Part shown: positions 27,672-64,000 of the stretch, piece after piece
Layout of the letters: each line of letters begins with the position of its first letter
How positions within the stretch are numbered: the stretch's first letter is position 1
Assembly: GCA_045586845.1 (NCBI GenBank)
Contig: JAZNBB010000058.1
Span: forward strand, 6,532-70,531
Origin: Eubacteriales bacterium
GTDB lineage: Bacteria > Bacillota > Clostridia > Oscillospirales > CAG-272
Length of the DNA stretch: 64,000 nt
Direction: 5' to 3'
Notes under the pieces: generated by a model
The model's database searches: none
Seen by the model: only the letters and a program-made list of their open reading frames with translations
What the model was told of the DNA's origin: nothing
Translations under genes and position numbers: made by a program

Positions 27672-30011
27672 ATGAACATGAAAAGAAATGCATTCATATT
27701 ATTTGCTCTGCTATTGGCAATCACTATGCTGTTTGCTGCGTGCGATCAAGGCGAAGGTCAAGAAGAAATTACCAATGAAGTGATTGTTGGTGGTGACATC
27801 GTTACCGAGGAAGATGCCACAACGGATAATGGCGAAAACGCTGAGCCTGATGCGACAACTGAAGATCCCAACCAGCCGCACGAGCACGCATTTGGCGAGT
27901 GGACAACGGTCAAGGCGGCAACCTGCACGCAGGCAGGTAAGCAAGAGCGCATTTGTTCATGTGGCAAAAAAGAAAAAATGACTCTTGATGCACTCGGTCA
28001 TGCCGAAGTGATTGATGCGGCGGTAGAACCGACGTGCTCTGAGCAGGGATTAACAGAAGGCAAACATTGCGCTAATTGTGATACGGTATTTGTGGCGCAG
28101 GAGGTAATGCCTGCAACGGGAGAGCATGTGTATGTTAATGAAGTATGTCAGGGTTGCTCGGCGAAACTGCAATACAGTGAAGGCTTGGTGTTTGTATCAA
28201 ATGGTGATGGCACTTGTTACGTCAGTGATATTGGTTCCTGTACAGATACGGATATTGTGATTCCGAAACGTTCTCCTCTTGGCGATAGCGTGACGAGCAT
28301 TGGATCTTTGGCGTTCGATAACTGCGTTGGAATGGTAAGCATCACTATCCCTGATAGCGTGACAAGTATTGGCACTCAAGCATTCTACAATTGTACCGGC
28401 TTGAAGCGTATAACTATTCCGGATAGTGTGACAAGCATTGGCTGGAGTGCATTTTCTGACTGTACCGGTTTGACGCGTATTACCATTCCGGATAGCGTGG
28501 TAGACATTAATACCGGTGCATTCTCCAACTGCACCGGCTTAACGAGCGCTATCATTGGCGACAGCGTGATAAGTATTGGTATTGATGCATTCTGGCATTG
28601 CCGCAGCTTGACGAGCATTACGATTCCGGATAGCGTGACGAGCATTGGCAATAGCGCGTTCGGTGGCTGCACCGGCTTGATGAGTATTACCATTGGTGAT
28701 AGCGTGACGAGCATTGGCAATAGAGCGTTCGAAGGATGCACCGGTTTGACGCGTATTACCATTCCGGATGGTGTGACGAGCATAGGATATTCTGCGTTCG
28801 AAGGATGCACCGGCTTGACGAGCATTACTATTCCGGATAGCGTAACGAGCATTGCTTGTCCGGATAGCATGACAATTGTTGGCGATGGGGTGTTCTCAGG
28901 TTGCACCAGGTTGACAAGCTTAATTGTTTCGGAAGGAAACACTACTTATCACAGCGCAGGGAATTGCATTATTGAAACGGAAAGCAAAACCTTGGTTGCC
29001 GGATGCAATACGAGCATTATTCCTGCGGACGGTAGTGTGACAAGCATTGGTGCATTTGCGTTCTCCGGCTGCGAGGGTTTGACAAGTGTTACCATTCCGG
29101 ATGGCGTGACAAGCATTGGCATTAAAGCGTTCTCTATCTGCAAAGGCTTGACAAGTGTTACCATTCCGGATAGTGTGACAAGTATTGATACTCGTGCGTT
29201 CGATTTCTGCACAGGATTGACGAGCATTGCCATTCCGGATAGTGTGACAAGCCTTGGAGCATTTGTGTTCGAAGGGAGTTATGACCTCATTCGAAAAGAG
29301 CAGGGCGTTAGCTATGTGGATGGTTGGGTGGTGGATTGCGACTCTAATGTTACAACAGTTGACTTAACTGGCACGAGAGGCATAGCTGCATCAGCGTTTT
29401 ATGGGTGCAACTTGACGAGTATTGCTATTCCGGATAGTGTGATAAGCATTGGTGATAGGGCGTTTGAACGTTGTACAGGCATGACGAGTGTTACCATTGG
29501 AAACGGTGTGACAATGATTGGCGAGTATGCGTTCTCCGACTGTACCGAATTGACGAGTGTTACCATTGGAAACGGTGTGACAATGATTGGCAAGTATGCG
29601 TTCTCCGACTGTACCGGCTTGACGAACATCACGATTTCGGATAGCGTGGCAAGCATTGGTGATTCAGCGTTCAAGGGGTGCACAAATATGACGAGTATTA
29701 CTATTCCGGGCAATGTGACAAGTATCGGTGATTGGGCGTTTAAAGGTTGCACAAGTATGACGAGTGCTACCATTGGAAACGGTGTGACAATGATTGGCAA
29801 GTTTGCGTTCTCCGACTGTACCGGCTTGACGAACATCACGATTTCGGATAGCGTGACAAACATTGGATTTGCTGCGTTTTCTGACTGCACCGCCTTGACC
29901 GACGTGTATTTCACCGGTACCGAGCAAGAATGGGCTGCAATTGAGCTTGGAGACTTCAACGACGCTCTTTCAACCGCCACCATCCACTACAACTACGTTC
30001 CCGAAGAATAA
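27672..30011 (+). CDS. surface lipoprotein with BspA-type leucine-rich repeats
   Basis: A signal peptide with lipobox LFAAC is followed by a Cys-rich segment. Then come about 25 repeats of about 23 aa of the form ITIPDSVTSIGxxAFxxCTGLTS. Confidence 0.8.
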   Translation: MNMKRNAFILFALLLAITMLFAACDQGEGQEEITNEVIVGGDIVTEEDATTDNGENAEPDATTEDPNQPHEHAFGEWTTVKAATCTQAGKQERICSCGKKEKMTLDALGHAEVIDAAVEPTCSEQGLTEGKHCANCDTVFVAQEVMPATGEHVYVNEVCQGCSAKLQYSEGLVFVSNGDGTCYVSDIGSCTDTDIVIPKRSPLGDSVTSIGSLAFDNCVGMVSITIPDSVTSIGTQAFYNCTGLKRITIPDSVTSIGWSAFSDCTGLTRITIPDSVVDINTGAFSNCTGLTSAIIGDSVISIGIDAFWHCRSLTSITIPDSVTSIGNSAFGGCTGLMSITIGDSVTSIGNRAFEGCTGLTRITIPDGVTSIGYSAFEGCTGLTSITIPDSVTSIACPDSMTIVGDGVFSGCTRLTSLIVSEGNTTYHSAGNCIIETESKTLVAGCNTSIIPADGSVTSIGAFAFSGCEGLTSVTIPDGVTSIGIKAFSICKGLTSVTIPDSVTSIDTRAFDFCTGLTSIAIPDSVTSLGAFVFEGSYDLIRKEQGVSYVDGWVVDCDSNVTTVDLTGTRGIAASAFYGCNLTSIAIPDSVISIGDRAFERCTGMTSVTIGNGVTMIGEYAFSDCTELTSVTIGNGVTMIGKYAFSDCTGLTNITISDSVASIGDSAFKGCTNMTSITIPGNVTSIGDWAFKGCTSMTSATIGNGVTMIGKFAFSDCTGLTNITISDSVTNIGFAAFSDCTALTDVYFTGTEQEWAAIELGDFNDALSTATIHYNYVPEE
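29482..29856 (+). repeat. near-identical in-frame DNA repeats inside the LRR gene (69-bp tandem; 207-bp displaced copy)
   Basis: Three copies starting at 29482, 29551 and 29758 share tgacgagtg(t/c)taccattggaaacggtgtgacaatgattggc(a/g)agt(a/t)tgcgttctccgactgtacc. Copies 2 and 3 continue identically through ggcttgacgaacatcacgatttcggatagcgtg. Confidence 0.8.
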
Positions 30012-53185: not shown

Positions 53186-53284
53186 CAAAATCAGGAATAA
53201 TTTTCTGCAAATGTGACAGTTTTTTGCAAAAAACTATACTTTTAGTAATGGAGAGTATATTCTATCAACTAAAGGAGAAGTTCC

Positions 53285-53884
53285 ATGAAAAAAACAGACA
53301 CCCCGGATACCCGCCCGCTGCTGGAGGATCAGAAGATCATCGATCTGTATTGGCAAAGGGAAGAGAGCGCCATTACGGAAACCGATCGCAAGTACGGAAA
53401 GTATCTGATGACCATTGCCTACAATATCCTGCACAACGACCCCGACAGCGAGGAGTGCCTCAACGATACGTATCTTGGTACGTGGAACGCCATTCCGCCA
53501 GCCAAGCCCACGCTGTTTCAGGTCTTTTTGTCCAAGATCATGCGCAATACTGCCGTGGTACGCTACAAAAAGAACCACGCACAGAGCCGCGTGCCAAGCG
53601 AGATGACCGTTTCCTTGGACGAGTTGGAGCAGTACATACCCTACGAGCCCTCGGCAGAGGACGATTACGACGTGTACAGGCTCAGTCGACTGCTCAGCGA
53701 CTATTTGCGCAAAATGTCCGAAAAGCGCGCGTTTATCTTTATTTGCAGATACTATTGTGCCGATCGCATTTCGGATATAGCCGCCATGCTGCACGTCAGC
53801 GAGAGCACGGTCTACCGTGAGCTGGACGAGATCAAAAAGGGCTTGCGCGAAATTCTGATCAAGGAGGGATATCGCAATGCGTAA
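53285..53884 (+). CDS. sigma-70 family RNA polymerase sigma factor (ECF-like, regions 2 and 4)
   Basis: Region 2-like block YGKYLMTIAYNILHNDPDSEECLNDTYLGTW and region 4 HTH block ISDIAAMLHVSESTVYRELDEIKKGL. RBS aaaggag. Confidence 0.75.
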   Translation: MKKTDTPDTRPLLEDQKIIDLYWQREESAITETDRKYGKYLMTIAYNILHNDPDSEECLNDTYLGTWNAIPPAKPTLFQVFLSKIMRNTAVVRYKKNHAQSRVPSEMTVSLDELEQYIPYEPSAEDDYDVYRLSRLLSDYLRKMSEKRAFIFICRYYCADRISDIAAMLHVSESTVYRELDEIKKGLREILIKEGYRNA

Positions 53885-55838
53885 GGATAAAACTGAATTT
53901 ACGCTGGACGTGGTGTCCGGTATTGATGAGGAGATCGTAGATCGTAATCTTGCAAAACGCTATAAGTTGTGGCAGAGAAGAGGCAAGCGCAGTCGCGTTG
54001 CGCTGATCTCGCTTGTGGCAGCACTTTTGAGTATTTGCCTTGTCTTGGGCGCATTTATGATCGTGCCGCTCTTTGGCAAGCAGGTACCTGTATACCAAGG
54101 TATGACCGTATCTACCGAAGCACCCGTCGTGCCCGATTCTGCACTTGCGTTGCCCGTGCCCATGACCTCTGTGCTGAGCACGTCAAGCACGCTGCCCGCA
54201 TACGGACTTGTGCCGCTTGGAGAGCAGGAAACGCCTGAACCCCAAGCGAACCCCGAGGACGAAACCGAACCTGTCATTTTCGGCAAGACGTATTACGCGC
54301 TCAAAAATGAGGATATTTACATTCATATTCACATTTCCAACCCGGACGGCTTTGAGATCGTTTCCTTTACGCTCAACGGCGTCAAGTATACGAACTATAT
54401 GTTTGAGCCGGGCTCTGATCTGGAGACGCTGATCCTCAAATACAACGTAGGTGACGTGGACGGCTTGCAGGAATACACCATCGATGCCATCAAGTACATC
54501 GACGGAGAAGCGATCAAGGACGTCCGTATGAAAGGTGACAAGACGGTTAAGGTCTACGTTAACGACGATACGCAGGCGTTGCGATTTGAGGCGGAGCAGG
54601 AGTTTACCACCTTGACCTTTACCCCCGTGTGGAACGAGAGCTTTACAGGGGAAAAGACCATTCAAACGCTTGCACTCTACAAGGGTGAAGAGCTCCTGCG
54701 CGAGCTTTCACCCACCGATACCGAGATCCGGGATCTGCCCATGGAAACGCGCCTGATGCTGGTTGCCACCTATCAAGATGGCGACACAGTCAAAACGCTG
54801 CGTTACATATTCGATACGCCTAAATATTCCGAGGGGCTGCAGTTCAATAACGGAGTGATCGTTGGAATAGGAGCCTGCACCGATTCCGTGCTGTATCTCA
54901 ATGCTCCGATCGGGGAAAAAGCCTTTGAAAGCAACAACGGTATATATACCGTATATCTGGGTCCCGGCGTCACGTCGGTTGGCAGCAACGCTTTTCACGC
55001 TTGCACAAAGTTAAGCAAGGTCGTGCTGTCGGAAAGCCCTATCAGCCTTGGCGAATGGGTTTTTGCAGAGTGCATCAGTCTTGCGGATGTCAGCCTTTCC
55101 GGTCAAGTTGCAGAGATTCCGGATTATGCATATTTTGCATGTGAAAGCTTGGAGAGCATAGTGATCCCCGAGGGCGTAACAAAGCTTGGCGTGGGGGTGT
55201 TTGAGGCATGCGGGAAGCTTAAGAGCGTTCAACTTCCGGAGTCATTGAAGTCTGTCGGCGCTACTTGCTTTAGTCAATGTGGGGTTCTGGAGAGCATAGA
55301 ACTGCCGGACGGTATTACTGAAATTGGCGCGAATCCTTTCAACAGTTGTTATAGCCTTAAAAGCATCAAGCTCCCCGCAAGCCTTACAGAGATTCCCGAC
55401 AGTATGTTTTCCGGATTAAATAATCTTTATAGCATAGTGATTCCGGAGAGCGTAACATCTATCGGTCATATGGCATTCATCGGTAGCGCGCTTGGCAAGG
55501 TTGAATTTCCGGAAAGCGTTACTTCAATCGGGATAGGTGCTTTTCTTGGCTGTGAGAATCTTCGGAGTGTAACGATCCCGGCGTCTGTTACGTACGTTGA
55601 ATGGACTGCGTTTTCGCAATGTGAGAACTTGAAGACCATGTACATCGAGGGAAATGATACCAAATTCGTTCTATCGGGAGCTGCACCGGGACAGGCACCC
55701 TTTGAAATTCGTTACTACCTGAATGACGTGCATTATACGGGAACCATGCAGGAATGGCAAACCTATTACGGGAATGCCCCCAGATGGGCAGAAATGAAAT
55801 GTACCGTTCACTGCACGGATGGCGATATTGCGTATTGA
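53877..55838 (+). CDS. single-pass membrane protein: anti-sigma-like N-terminus plus BspA-type LRR ectodomain
   Basis: The start overlaps the sigma gene stop by 8 nt. A cytoplasmic roughly 45 aa is followed by a TM helix (VALISLVAALLSICLVLGAFMIV). The extracytoplasmic region carries about 10 LRR units (VIPEGVTKLGVGVFEACGKLKSV and similar). Confidence 0.6.
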   Translation: MRKDKTEFTLDVVSGIDEEIVDRNLAKRYKLWQRRGKRSRVALISLVAALLSICLVLGAFMIVPLFGKQVPVYQGMTVSTEAPVVPDSALALPVPMTSVLSTSSTLPAYGLVPLGEQETPEPQANPEDETEPVIFGKTYYALKNEDIYIHIHISNPDGFEIVSFTLNGVKYTNYMFEPGSDLETLILKYNVGDVDGLQEYTIDAIKYIDGEAIKDVRMKGDKTVKVYVNDDTQALRFEAEQEFTTLTFTPVWNESFTGEKTIQTLALYKGEELLRELSPTDTEIRDLPMETRLMLVATYQDGDTVKTLRYIFDTPKYSEGLQFNNGVIVGIGACTDSVLYLNAPIGEKAFESNNGIYTVYLGPGVTSVGSNAFHACTKLSKVVLSESPISLGEWVFAECISLADVSLSGQVAEIPDYAYFACESLESIVIPEGVTKLGVGVFEACGKLKSVQLPESLKSVGATCFSQCGVLESIELPDGITEIGANPFNSCYSLKSIKLPASLTEIPDSMFSGLNNLYSIVIPESVTSIGHMAFIGSALGKVEFPESVTSIGIGAFLGCENLRSVTIPASVTYVEWTAFSQCENLKTMYIEGNDTKFVLSGAAPGQAPFEIRYYLNDVHYTGTMQEWQTYYGNAPRWAEMKCTVHCTDGDIAY

Positions 55839-55878: not shown

Positions 55879-55913
55879 ACTCCCGCTCGGATTTTTCGGG
55901 CGGGAGTGCTTTT
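55879..55913 (+). terminator. rho-independent terminator
   Basis: ACTCCCGC...GCGGGAGT stem followed by GCTTTT. Confidence 0.55.
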
Positions 55914-55946: not shown

Positions 55947-55975
55947 TTGACATTTGAAAAAATACACAGTATAAT
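55947..55975 (+). promoter_or_regulatory. sigma-A type promoter (TTGACA-17-TATAAT) for the tRNA gene
   Basis: Perfect hexamers with a 17-nt spacer. The -10 box ends 17 nt upstream of the tRNA 5' end. Confidence 0.65.
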
Positions 55976-55992
55976 ATATAAGTCGTTTTGAC

Positions 55993-56069
55993 GGGCTATT
56001 AGCTCAGTTGGTCAGAGCTACCGGCTCATAACCGGTTGGTCCGGGGTTCGAGTCCCTGATAGCCCACCA
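55993..56069 (+). tRNA. tRNA with anticodon CAT (elongator Met or lysidine-modified Ile2), CCA encoded
   Basis: The sequence is GGGCTATTAGCTCAGTTGGTCAGAGCTACCGGCTCATAACCGGTTGGTCCGGGGTTCGAGTCCCTGATAGCCCACCA. G1-C72 are paired, so it is not an initiator. The anticodon arm CCGGCTCATAACCGG resembles tRNA-Ile2 genes, but I cannot decide from sequence alone. Confidence 0.9.
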
Positions 56070-62385: not shown

Positions 62386-62976
62386 ATGATCCTTGATCAA
62401 AAAACGTGGGATCGCATCCCCGATGACGGCGAGATTGTAGAGCTTTTGTGCCGTCGGGATGAATTTGCTCTGCGGGCGGTCATGACCAGATACGGTGCAC
62501 TCATGAAAAGCATCGCGGTGCAGATCACGGGCTCGGAGCAGGACGCGGAGGAATGCGTCAACGATGCCGTGTTGGAGCTTTGGAATTCCGTTCCCCCCGC
62601 GAGTCCAAAGCAGCTTTCGGCATTTGTAGGCGGTATCGTCCGAAGACGCGCCATTGACCGCGTGCGCTACAATCAAGCAGAAAAAAGGGCAGGGAGCGAA
62701 TACTGCAGCTCACTTGAGGAGCTGGAGGAGTGCTTGCCCGACAGACAGAGTGAAGCAGAGAGCGATTCGGACGAGATCATGCACGTCATTCGTCTTTTTC
62801 TTGACAAGCAAAAGCCGGACGATCGAGATATGTTTCTGATGCGGTATTTCCGCTTTATGTCCAACGAGCAGATCGCGCAGCAATTCGGCATGCGCGAAGC
62901 AAGCGTTGTTATGCGCTTGGTACGTATGCGGAAGCGATTGCGAAAGGCGCTGGAAGAAAACCACATCCGATTGTAA
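62386..62976 (+). CDS. sigma-70 family RNA polymerase sigma factor (ECF-like), paralogue of 53285-53884
   Basis: Region 2-like YGALMKSIAVQITGSEQDAEECVNDAVLELW and region 4 HTH block NEQIAQQFGMREASVVMRLVRMRKRL. RBS gaaaggag. Confidence 0.75.
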   Translation: MILDQKTWDRIPDDGEIVELLCRRDEFALRAVMTRYGALMKSIAVQITGSEQDAEECVNDAVLELWNSVPPASPKQLSAFVGGIVRRRAIDRVRYNQAEKRAGSEYCSSLEELEECLPDRQSEAESDSDEIMHVIRLFLDKQKPDDRDMFLMRYFRFMSNEQIAQQFGMREASVVMRLVRMRKRLRKALEENHIRL

Positions 62977-63004: not shown

Positions 63005-64000
63005 ATGAACAATAAAACAGACAAGATCATAGACGCTATTGGAAAGCTGGACGAGGAGCAGATCGCTGCTTGCATCAAGCCGCGCAGACGTAAAGGATTT
63101 TTGCAATCGGGCAAGACGCGCATCGCACTTGTGCTGGCGGCAGTGTTGCTTTTCACCACGCTTGCATCTGCCCTGATCGTTGCCCCCATGATGCTTGGTG
63201 ACGACAAACCCGGTGAGATTCCCGGTATTCTCCCCGGCACCGAGAGCACAGGAACGCTGCCCGATGATACCGCTGTCAACCCTCCGGTAGACGCTACCGT
63301 GAAATACCCGGGTATCGCGCAGCTGCTCAGCCTTAGTACGATTTCATACTCGGGGTATACCGTATCTGACGAAGGAATTATAAACTTACCCGGCAAGGAT
63401 AGCAATGCATCCTTTACCGAAACCGAGGATTATTTTTCTGCCCCCATTCCGATTATTACGCTCAATTGCGGTGAGAAAAACACCGTTAAGATCAGTTGCG
63501 ACTACGGCGTGGTCGGAAAGGTGGGACGCACAAGGGAGTACGGAGAATATGTTTATCAATACGTGGACGATAATGGCGGCAGATGGGATATCAATTATTC
63601 CTCACATTTTGGAGACAGTGAGCTGACCATCAAGGGCGATGAAAGCTTTTTATGGTTTTATGATGTTGAAACGGGAGTTTATAACAATACCGGCTGTAAC
63701 CGCGACACTTTTATCGATTATACCGTGTACGATCCGGACGGCGAGATCATTGCTGCGGGTAGCATTTACGTTGCGGCGTTCCGTTATATGTTTGCACACG
63801 ACCTGCGTTTGATGACAAGTATCCCTTTTGACCGTGCGCTGTCTAACTTTGAAATCTTTGAACGGCAGGCTGCACAGTATACCGTCCGCAAGCCGATCAA
63901 TCTGTATGCAGAGTCTTTTGTGGATGAAAACGGTTTGATCGATACGGAAAAGCGAGAAGCATTTTTTGATTATCACGAAACGATCAAGTGTGTTCGCAGC
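63005..64000 (+). CDS. anti-sigma-like single-pass membrane protein, 3' end beyond the window (partial)
   Basis: This ORF is not in the supplied track because it has no stop in the window. I translated it by hand from ATG 63005 (RBS aaaggagg), and the frame is open to 64000. The product starts MNNKTDKIIDAIGKLDEEQIAACIKPRRRKGFLQSGKTRIALVLAAVLLFTTLASALIVAP..., matching the N-terminal layout of the 53877 protein. Confidence 0.5.
   Translation, partial: MNNKTDKIIDAIGKLDEEQIAACIKPRRRKGFLQSGKTRIALVLAAVLLFTTLASALIVAPMMLGDDKPGEIPGILPGTESTGTLPDDTAVNPPVDATVKYPGIAQLLSLSTISYSGYTVSDEGIINLPGKDSNASFTETEDYFSAPIPIITLNCGEKNTVKISCDYGVVGKVGRTREYGEYVYQYVDDNGGRWDINYSSHFGDSELTIKGDESFLWFYDVETGVYNNTGCNRDTFIDYTVYDPDGEIIAAGSIYVAAFRYMFAHDLRLMTSIPFDRALSNFEIFERQAAQYTVRKPINLYAESFVDENGLIDTEKREAFFDYHETIKCVRS

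Follow-up and report, generated by a model that had tools for sequence, protein, structure and literature searches.

Our sequence comparisons and structure predictions for a 64,000-nucleotide stretch of contig JAZNBB010000058.1 from a Eubacteriales bacterium (hereafter the window) suggest that it encodes an extracytoplasmic function (ECF) sigma factor and, after it, a cognate membrane regulator with a single TM pass that most likely acts as an anti-sigma factor. We consider it probable that this pair belongs to an unannotated family whose regulators carry swappable receptor domains and are probably activated by regulated intramembrane proteolysis (RIP). The reading draws on gene organisation, domain architecture, membrane topology, the modularity of the ectodomains, and the family-wide conservation of the gene coupling, of a short N-terminal motif and of the core of the transmembrane (TM) helix, all of which were shown computationally. 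The pair has all the genomic hallmarks of a co-translated ECF sigma factor and single-pass anti-sigma factor. The operon and its immediate surroundings are laid out as follows, coordinates being those of the window:

53213..53240, + strand, promoter-like element ahead of the sigma gene (GTGACA and TATACT, separated by 16 nt), agreeing with 10 of 12 sigma-70 consensus positions
53285..53884, + strand, sigma gene, 199 residues (open reading frame list), with region 2 at residues 35-97 and region 4 at residues 136-190 (Pfam/NCBIfam)
53863-53867, + strand, GGAGG Shine-Dalgarno sequence for the partner, within the 3' end of the sigma gene and 9 nt ahead of the partner ATG
53877..55838, + strand, partner gene, 653 residues (open reading frame list)
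53877..54008, + strand, partner residues 1-44, cytoplasmic N-terminus, putative sigma-binding (anti-sigma) module
54009..54074, + strand, partner residues 45-66, TM helix, the hydrophobic core of a helix predicted by AlphaFold2 (AF2) at residues 42-66 and containing L-V-A-A-L at residues 49-53
55880-55906, + strand, terminator-like hairpin CTCCCGC...GCGGGAG, followed by TGCTTTT to 55913, read from the sequence
55947-56069, + strand, tRNA-Met (CAT), directly downstream of the operon, with a sigma-70 promoter at 55947-55975 that agrees with 12 of 12 consensus positions

The sigma factor matches TIGR02937 (sigma70-ECF, NCBIfam) with 63 bits against a cutoff of 42.9, Sigma70_r2 over residues 35-97 (Pfam, E = 5e-7) and Sigma70_r4_2 over residues 136-180 (E = 1.4e-5), the last with 25.1 bits and thus slightly below the Pfam cutoff of 25.7. 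Because regions 1.1 and 3 are missing, we assign the protein on sequence grounds to the ECF-type, group 4 sigma factors, in agreement with a first-pass annotation of the same DNA that had called it ECF-like. No named NCBIfam equivalog was reached, the SigV model giving only 16.5 bits against a cutoff of 190, and the nearest solved structure, found with a profile of the sigma factor and its homologues, is that of SigW (5wuq, E = 3e-9). At E<=1e-5 we found 2646 database homologues, and those with a named source all come from Clostridia, Ruminococcaceae or Oscillospiraceae metagenome-assembled genomes. The numbered ECF groups of Casas-Pastor 2021 include Firmicutes groups listed with DUF4179 anti-sigma factors or with no known regulator (PMC7826278).

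The sigma stop and the partner start overlap by 8 nt (ATGCGTAA, 53877-53884; ...CGC AAT GCG TAA / ATG CGT AAG...), as the first-pass annotation had also seen, an arrangement that points to translational coupling of the two genes. The interval given in that annotation began at 53208 and takes in the promoter-like element. Because this element stands upstream, a hairpin follows the partner (missed by a strict terminator scan, its T-run being short) and the tRNA-Met gene comes next with a promoter of its own, the sigma factor and its partner form a two-gene operon. Antisense open reading frames within the region were rejected as spurious, being short and lying inside two genes with thousands of homologues.

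That this coupling is a property of a family became apparent when one genome per GTDB species was scanned with the sigma alignment, which gave 542 confirmed relatives, of which 80 loci (L001-L080) were kept. Taking the open reading frame downstream of every sigma copy in these loci yielded 97 partners, and 91 pairs were complete enough to measure. Sigma and partner overlap in 89 of these 91 pairs, by exactly 4 or 8 nt in 81 of them: the overlap is 4 nt (mostly ATGA) in 70, 8 nt in 11 and of another length in 8, some of the latter probably reflecting mis-called starts, and only 2 pairs do not overlap. Every partner follows one layout: a short N-terminus, which runs for a median of 43 residues up to the TM core, then a Lys/Arg patch, one hydrophobic helix and an ectodomain of about 100-1500 residues. 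Since Lys and Arg are richer before the TM helix than after it (a mean of 5.8 in the 15 residues before versus 0.8 after, as expected from the positive-inside rule), the N-termini of the family can be placed in the cytoplasm. The window partner conforms to this, with 8 Lys/Arg among the 14 residues preceding the membrane, and the topology given in the first-pass annotation (a short cytoplasmic N-terminus, one TM helix and roughly 580 residues outside) is borne out by our figures of 44 residues, a helix at 45-66 and an ectodomain of 587 residues (67-653).

The N-termini share an acidic motif of roughly [EKD]xφφ[ED][AG]φ[SNG]xφD[DEP][DE]φφ[ED], or in compact form φxxφSxID[DE][DE]φφ[ED], in which the Asp is found in 84 of 99 sequences and Ile, Leu or Val in 95 of 99 at the preceding position. 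When tested on 93 N-termini (those of the 91 operon pairs and of the two pairs in the window, the second of which is described further on), a regular expression for the motif recovered 58, compared with a mean of 1.0 and a maximum of 4 in shuffled N-termini. The TM core is conserved as φ-Ala-Ala-[Cys/Ser/Ala], with Ala at the two positions in 87 and 88 of 99 sequences and Cys in 57 of 99. We also considered whether the 'AAC' of this core might be a lipobox and rejected it: only 57 of 99 sequences have the Cys, the motif stands at that end of a complete TM helix which faces the cytoplasm, and the window partner does not have it. Beyond the membrane the family ectodomains cannot be aligned (mean column identity 6%), and the Pfam content of 98 partners ranges over LRR_5 (18), Serpin (5), Flg_new (5), Big_14 (4), fn3 (3), beta-propeller (2) and Peptidase_M23 (1), most of the partners having no Pfam match. 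A search with the partner returned 1430 proteins at E<=1e-10, many of which align by the LRR region alone. Within the clade of LRR-bearing partners the N-terminus is likewise conserved, with S14, I16, D17, R28 and L31 at least 90% conserved while residues 80-135 drift. The family is large, specific to Clostridia and unrecognised by current annotation.

These observations bear on a simpler view in which the partner is a co-transcribed surface adhesin, perhaps itself sigma-dependent, and its N-terminus a specialised anchor, export or localisation signal. We regard this as unlikely. The databases do name the partners only as LRR domain-containing or hypothetical proteins, no anti-sigma family matches them, and BspA-type LRR proteins are typically adhesins, the one that starts at 27672 in the window being an ordinary lipoprotein with its own sigma-A promoter. 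However, an export signal needs no tie to one sigma family, and here the motif lies directly downstream of a sigma factor of the same family in 90+ cases, in overlapping genes and in front of any ectodomain; an acidic two-helix segment ahead of a strong positive-inside patch should moreover stay in the cytoplasm, and the phylogenies of partner and sigma agree. Distances between sigma factors and between N-termini co-vary over about 90 pairs (r = 0.77), although co-inheritance alone would also give that. Conservation of the motif in 90+ operon partners with unrelated ectodomains, and again within the LRR clade, argues that the N-terminus is more than a signal anchor, the possibility that the first-pass annotation had set against its own proposal. 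We return to the reading of a cognate regulator, in which the N-terminus would bind the sigma factor.

The same coupling could also serve a positive membrane-tethered co-factor that recruits or activates the sigma factor on ligand binding. The pair is tightly coupled genetically and its N-terminus is unlike the canonical inhibitory anti-sigma domains, but we know of no precedent for this among single-pass partners of ECF sigma factors, and regions 2 and 4 are complete, so that on sequence grounds the sigma factor needs no second subunit. We find this explanation very improbable and continue with an inhibitory partner as the preferred one.

Several observations weigh against the partner being an anti-sigma factor, and against the sigma factor being controlled in the usual way. 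The AF2 prediction for the N-terminus has helices at residues 6-13 and 18-36, an S-G-I-D joint and then the Lys/Arg patch, and the confidence for the helices is low, with a predicted local distance difference test score (pLDDT) of 41-70. No known anti-sigma family reached threshold for the N-terminus in Pfam or NCBIfam (no match at E<=0.1), and a profile search found no PDB relative of the module, the best hit (E = 0.8) being to TM segments. Domains of class I (ASD/ZAS, RskA, zf-HC2) are helical bundles of about 80-90 residues, often with HxxxCxxC; the window N-terminus, at 44 residues, is about half that size and has no Cys or His motif. In 9 of 64 family N-termini a weak match to DUF4179 (PF13786) was seen, none exceeding 15 bits where the cutoff is 30.1 and the best having E = 0.0054, and a weak match to DUF3379 reached 21 bits where the cutoff is 33.2; these alignments are confined to the Lys/Arg patch and the TM region, and the window partner gives no match to DUF4179. 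As DUF4179 is a mark of Firmicute anti-sigma factors (PMC7826278), we would treat the weak matches as a lead towards RsiV-like proteins and not as membership. Among the longer sigma homologues no natural fusion of sigma and partner was found, all of them being N-terminal over-extensions. A closer parallel in size comes from class II anti-sigma domains of the CnrY/NepR type, in which a two-helix cytoplasmic segment of about 30-45 residues suffices to embrace an ECF sigma factor; the window N-terminus is like them in length and in its two predicted helices, with no sequence relationship.

The promoter, too, departs from that of a conventional autoregulated circuit. Typical autoregulated ECF promoters have AAC in the -35 and CGT in the -10 element, and the window promoter has no ECF-type AAC in its -35 and looks like a housekeeping promoter. 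Of 89 family operons, 52 have something similar ahead of the sigma gene ([T/G]xACA followed, after a T-rich spacer, by CGAC/GTACT/TGACT), and the downstream element of relatives is also seen as CGTC. Because AAC is missing, the housekeeping sigma factor could read the window promoter; the other candidate is the window sigma factor itself. Nor are any regulon genes attached to the operon in the window, which is a two-gene unit. A search of the window for regulon promoters with the pattern at exact spacing gave no match, the pattern being one base off even for the native site, and the family consensus is too loose for a reliable regulon scan.

The outer part of the partner was modelled with AF2, both at full length (43 homologues, mean pLDDT 82.7) and as a separate model of residues 60-335, and consists of:

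54075..54113, + strand, residues 67-79, juxtamembrane strand GKQVPVYQGMTVS, from conservation and an AF2 beta strand at residues 72-79
54114..54281, + strand, residues 80-135, low-complexity disordered loop, pLDDT below 50 for residues 87-135, its length and sequence varying in homologues
54282..54563, + strand, residues 136-229, immunoglobulin (Ig)-like domain 1 (Ig-1), pLDDT above 90, the most conserved part of the ectodomain
54564..54824, + strand, residues 230-316, Ig-like domain 2 (AF2, Foldseek), all-beta, pLDDT above 90 in the separate model
54825..55676, + strand, BspA-type LRR domain (LRR_5) including its N-terminal cap YSEGL..G.CTD (Pfam, AF2, Foldseek)
55677..55838, + strand, residues 601-653, C-terminal cap (...YTGTMQEW...VHCTDGDIAY) and stop, structured, pLDDT about 90

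The LRR domain is recognised as LRR_5 (PF13306) with E = 3.7e-76 and 253.5 bits against a cutoff of 27.7, the only Pfam or NCBIfam match in the partner. In the AF2 model it forms a ladder of about 12 beta rungs spaced about 23 residues apart, from about residue 338 to about residue 598, with pLDDT above 90. Its best Foldseek matches are BspA-type surface proteins of gut bacteria, namely 4fs7, 4gt6 (Faecalibacterium), 4fd0 and 4fdw (E of about 1e-11 to 1e-12), with further matches to PcpA (4cp6) and TpLRR (6mlx), and the AF2 architecture and Foldseek together confirm a genuine LRR of the surface type. The first-pass annotation had counted about 10 such units and placed them at the very end of the protein; the count was close, but the C-terminal cap (about residues 601-653) comes after them. 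This cap, which follows the pattern ...GT..EW...HC[ST]DGD with G622, W627 and D648 at least 90% conserved, was absent from that description, as were the two Ig-like domains.

When 43-56 full-length homologues were aligned, conservation of the ectodomain was found to peak in the juxtamembrane strand and Ig-1, well above the LRR. In the strand, written as KQVPVYxGMTVS over residues 68-79, P71, Y73, G75, M76, T77 and V78 are at least 90% conserved. Over matching 10-residue blocks its mean pLDDT is 92 in the separate model and 87 in the full-length one, and DSSP gives it as 'E', so that it is paired with other strands. Of the 32 invariant alignment columns with a counterpart in the query, 30 fall in Ig-1 (for which no Pfam family matches), among them H152, N155-P156, E160, S163-F164-T165 and N167. 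By AF2 the N155-P156 pair lies in a beta turn (N-P-D-G) between strands 146-154 and 160-166. For the two beta domains, which span about residues 138-228 and 235-313 in the full-length model, Foldseek returned only generic tandem Ig/FN3 folds.

Moreover, hidden Markov models of both parts showed that no complete partner in the window sigma factor's clade is without the strand and Ig-1, not even those that have no LRR (L006, 491 residues; L011, 1380 residues; and L016:6572-8296, which ends in an M23 peptidase). This sigma clade, a single one in the neighbour-joining tree, and the strand/Ig-1 module are co-inherited in 22 of 22 cases. When the juxtamembrane/Ig-1 segment alone was used as the query, the way candidates were selected limited the result to 21 proteins, all short or partial; this gave no usable survey of architectures but brought P0243 and P0256, described below, to light. 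LRR_5 also occurs in another sigma clade (L051, L068, L038 and L074) whose partners do not have the strand/Ig-1 module, from which it follows that LRR ectodomains were attached to such partners at least twice. Such repeated recruitment, as read from these sequences, favours a functional tie between LRR binding and the switch, and the LRR is probably best regarded as one input or adhesion module among several that can replace each other. As to the association of LRR-bearing partners with this sigma clade, which the first-pass annotation had wished to see surveyed, LRR_5 is found in 18 of 98 partners and in two sigma clades, and M23 or domains of no known family take its place in some members of the clade. 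The same annotation's proposal of the LRR as the sensor of the switch is partly supported; the hallmarks and the two or more recruitments speak for it, but the part that is invariant in the clade is the strand, loop and Ig-1, with the LRR being swappable. A side observation here is P0243 (241 residues, 16 contigs), a partner that ends right after its Ig-1 domain.

The constancy of this membrane-proximal module raises the question of whether the partner is an adhesion-coupled mechanosensor, in which the juxtamembrane module does the transducing, the LRR is an adhesive handle, and either autoproteolysis at Asn-Pro or force-driven extraction of the strand would, under shear, expose a stub to the site-2 cut. 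The distribution of conservation fits such a device, as does the presence of the strand and Ig-1 in all 22 clade partners irrespective of the distal domain, and in the prediction a disordered loop of about 50 residues separates the strand from the Ig domain with which it pairs. Autoproteolysis at Asn-Pro has precedents in RsgI, FlhB/YscU and the reovirus mu1 protein. The invariant N155-P156 turn between two strands reproduces the local context of the RsgI cleavage site (PMC10328401), and RsgI with its SEAL domain is currently modelled as a mechanotransducer that works through adhesion domains (PMC10556640).

Nevertheless we judge the mechanosensor doubtful. The fold is all-beta and of the Ig/FN3 type with no Foldseek match to RsgI-PD/SEAL, N-P-D-G is a classic beta turn whose invariance may be structural amid about 30 other invariant residues, the residue before the Asn is variable and no conserved His or Thr follows the Pro as in NPTH, and a cut at 155/156 would leave a stub of about 90 residues, which is long for a site-2 protease. 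The module is also found on P0256 (224 residues), where a lipoprotein signal (LSAC) leads directly into KHVPIYKGMTVS, after which come a disordered stretch and an Ig-like domain that has the Asn-Pro turn, and no sigma-coupled N-terminus is present. Because it occurs on this lipoprotein, the strand/Ig-1 module is not specific to signalling, a point that also counts against the favoured reading of a sigma-coupled receptor. Bolder still, and in our estimate a little less likely than the mechanosensor itself, would be a juxtamembrane module that is a new force-sensitive or autoproteolytic transducer, an analogue of SEAL and GAIN on a different fold built around the His152...Asn155-Pro156 turn, with LRR, serpin and M23 domains acting as mechanical or proteolytic inputs to genome-multiplied ECF switches. 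Identity of the juxtamembrane domain with SEAL/RsgI-PD was itself rejected on fold (a tandem Ig/FN3-like pair by AF2). Cleavage of the GAIN/MAIN type, HX(S/T), at H152-I153-S154 was likewise rejected, position 154 being S, N, H, E or D in homologues, and a comparison with MAIN proteins was dropped as these are organised differently from the window partner.

Returning to the reading of an anti-sigma factor with exchangeable receptors, we can propose how the pair might work. Residues 1-44 of the partner, as two short motif-bearing helices, would hold the sigma factor at the membrane, and translational coupling would keep the two proteins stoichiometric. Outside, a fixed membrane-proximal module, in which the juxtamembrane strand is docked on the Ig-like domain with the disordered loop between them, would be followed by the swappable distal module, here a 12-rung LRR solenoid that may bind a macromolecule outside the cell, for instance a ligand of the host, a glycan or a ligand on a cell surface. 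Engagement of the ligand, pulling, or proteolytic damage to the ectodomain could then turn the TM segment into a site-2 protease substrate. A site-2 cut near VAA (residues 50-52) might expose a ClpXP-type degron, upon which the N-terminal fragment would be degraded and the sigma factor freed to transcribe its regulon. In support of such a route the partner has an N-in single-pass topology and VAA embedded in its TM helix, features that are necessary for RIP and not sufficient for it. Sigma binding by the N-terminus, activation by RIP, the LRR as the input module, and the nature of ligand and regulon are what we infer here, and the degron role of VAA is proposed by analogy with RsgI, in which XAA motifs in the TM helix are ClpXP degrons exposed after cleavage by RseP (PMC12203970).

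The closest parallel in overall design is SigI/RsgI, for example RsgI1-9 of C. thermocellum. In RsgI a short domain at the N-terminus binds the sigma factor, and a single TM helix joins it to a conserved juxtamembrane domain, beyond which lie a disordered region and a carbohydrate-binding module (CBM) that varies. The protein is autocleaved at Asn-Pro between two strands, and RseP/RasP cuts it within the membrane after its ectodomain has been pulled off (PMC10328401, PMC10556640). In both systems the sigma gene is followed by that of a single-pass partner with a short N-terminus (about 50 residues in RsgI) and one TM helix, whose ectodomain combines a disordered region with a conserved juxtamembrane domain and a swappable ligand-binding module at its far end; both have many paralogous pairs per genome, XAA in the TM helix and Asn-Pro in a juxtamembrane beta turn. 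They differ in that SigI has a sigmaI-C domain whereas the window sigma factor is of the ECF type, with Sigma70_r2 and a near-threshold Sigma70_r4_2, and in that the window N-terminus has no significant Pfam similarity (RsgI_N not having been specifically compared). The window juxtamembrane domain is all-beta and Ig-like as opposed to the alpha/beta SEAL fold, its disordered segment lies inside the juxtamembrane module and not after it, and the distal domain is an LRR and not a CBM.

Among ECF systems, SigV/RsiV, the DUF4179-type pairs and sigma24C/Rsi24C resemble the window pair in combining an ECF sigma factor with a single-pass partner that has a short cytoplasmic part. The ectodomain of RsiV binds lysozyme. 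In both RsiV and Rsi24C, the latter belonging to the ECF-like sigma24C of C. thermocellum and carrying a GH5 module (PMC3990059), the ectodomain directly binds the inducing macromolecule and activation is by RIP (for RsiV PMC9044953, together with general background; for Rsi24C PMC3990059). The window pair differs from the SigV/RsiV and DUF4179 types in that its partner gives no DUF4179 match, its sigma factor falls far below the SigV cutoff and its ectodomain is unrelated. A ligand-binding ectodomain on the anti-sigma factor of an ECF or SigI system is therefore an established principle. What is new here is a Clostridia-wide family of sigma factors and partners set by a short N-terminal motif, a clade within it with a distinctive juxtamembrane module, and a BspA-type LRR as the distal domain. 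Known BspA-type LRR proteins (Tannerella BspA, pneumococcal PcpA, TpLRR of T. pallidum, 4fs7/4gt6) share PF13306 and N- and C-terminal caps with the window partner, but they are lipoproteins, secreted proteins or wall-anchored adhesins, and none is described as the ectodomain of a sigma-coupled regulator. Full-text searches of the literature turned up no account of an anti-sigma factor whose ectodomain is an LRR, in line with the first-pass statement that this architecture is not commonly described; in the genomes of gut and rumen Clostridia, however, it is common.

Two further loci of the window are related to the operon:

62386-62976 and from 63005 to the window end at 64000, + strand, a second pair of the same family (open reading frames and comparison), its sigma factor being of 196 residues
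27598-30011 including promoter, + strand, gene starting at 27672 for an LRR_5 protein of 779 residues (LRR_5, E = 3.9e-151)

The second sigma factor is 34% identical to the first (E = 3e-31), and its partner, which begins MNNKTDKIIDAIGKLDEEQIA..., has the motif, the Lys/Arg patch and a TM helix, but its ectodomain, cut by the window end, is not an LRR. Elsewhere in the family such pairs form tandem arrays, L051 having five sigma genes within 12.5 kb and both L021 and L045 having three, a multiplicity that recalls the multiple SigI/RsgI sets of cellulolytic clostridia. The protein that starts at 27672 has a lipobox (FAAC) and a perfect sigma-A promoter (TTGACA-17-TATAAT). The first-pass annotation had likened the window partner's repeats to it, and rightly so, since both are LRR_5 and the partner's LRR with its caps is 33% identical to it, the C-terminal cap being of the same type. 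Judging from its promoter, this lipoprotein looks constitutively expressed by the housekeeping machinery rather than controlled by an ECF sigma factor.

Some members of the wider family deserve separate mention. Serpin ectodomains with the PROSITE serpin signature near the C-terminus were seen in four partners (L046:6546-8078, L061:6558-7997, L077:6558-8120 and L077:4221-5855), and if these partners are anti-sigma factors, as their sequences suggest, a membrane-anchored serpin on one of them would make a natural sensor of extracellular proteases. In one sister clade (L018, L020, L021, L023, L024, L028-L030, L033, L036 and others) a -10-like GGTACT stands 7-8 nt before an in-frame ATG, within the conserved tatttATGAAGGGCCTTTCAAAA, which may mark the start of a leaderless mRNA or else a 5' leader that has been conserved. 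Cultured members include Lachnospira eligens ATCC 27750 (EUBELI_RS11060/RS11055; L081:4004-5253) and Monoglobus pectinilyticus (L082:4001-5286), and both pairs have 4-nt overlaps and the same N-terminal motif. The RefSeq annotation (PGAP) labels the partners of cultured isolates 'hypothetical protein', and LRR-bearing partners are labelled at source 'leucine-rich repeat domain-containing protein'.

Few surface proteins of gut anaerobes are as abundant as the BspA-type LRR proteins, which have been treated purely as adhesins. A sigma-coupled LRR would link the binding of a host, glycan or neighbour-cell ligand directly to transcription. The significance of this would rise substantially should the juxtamembrane module turn out to be a device of a new kind for cleavage or force sensing, or should the ligand of the LRR tie host adhesion to transcription. 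The carriage of such pairs by cultured bacteria (L. eligens and M. pectinilyticus) makes the prediction testable. Across Oscillospiraceae, Lachnospiraceae and related Clostridia of gut and rumen the wider family numbers hundreds to thousands of operons, and a genome often has several; recognition of its N-terminal module would re-annotate many genes as belonging to signal transduction and at the same time catalogue the extracellular inputs they may receive, from LRR and serpin to M23 and Ig-like domains.

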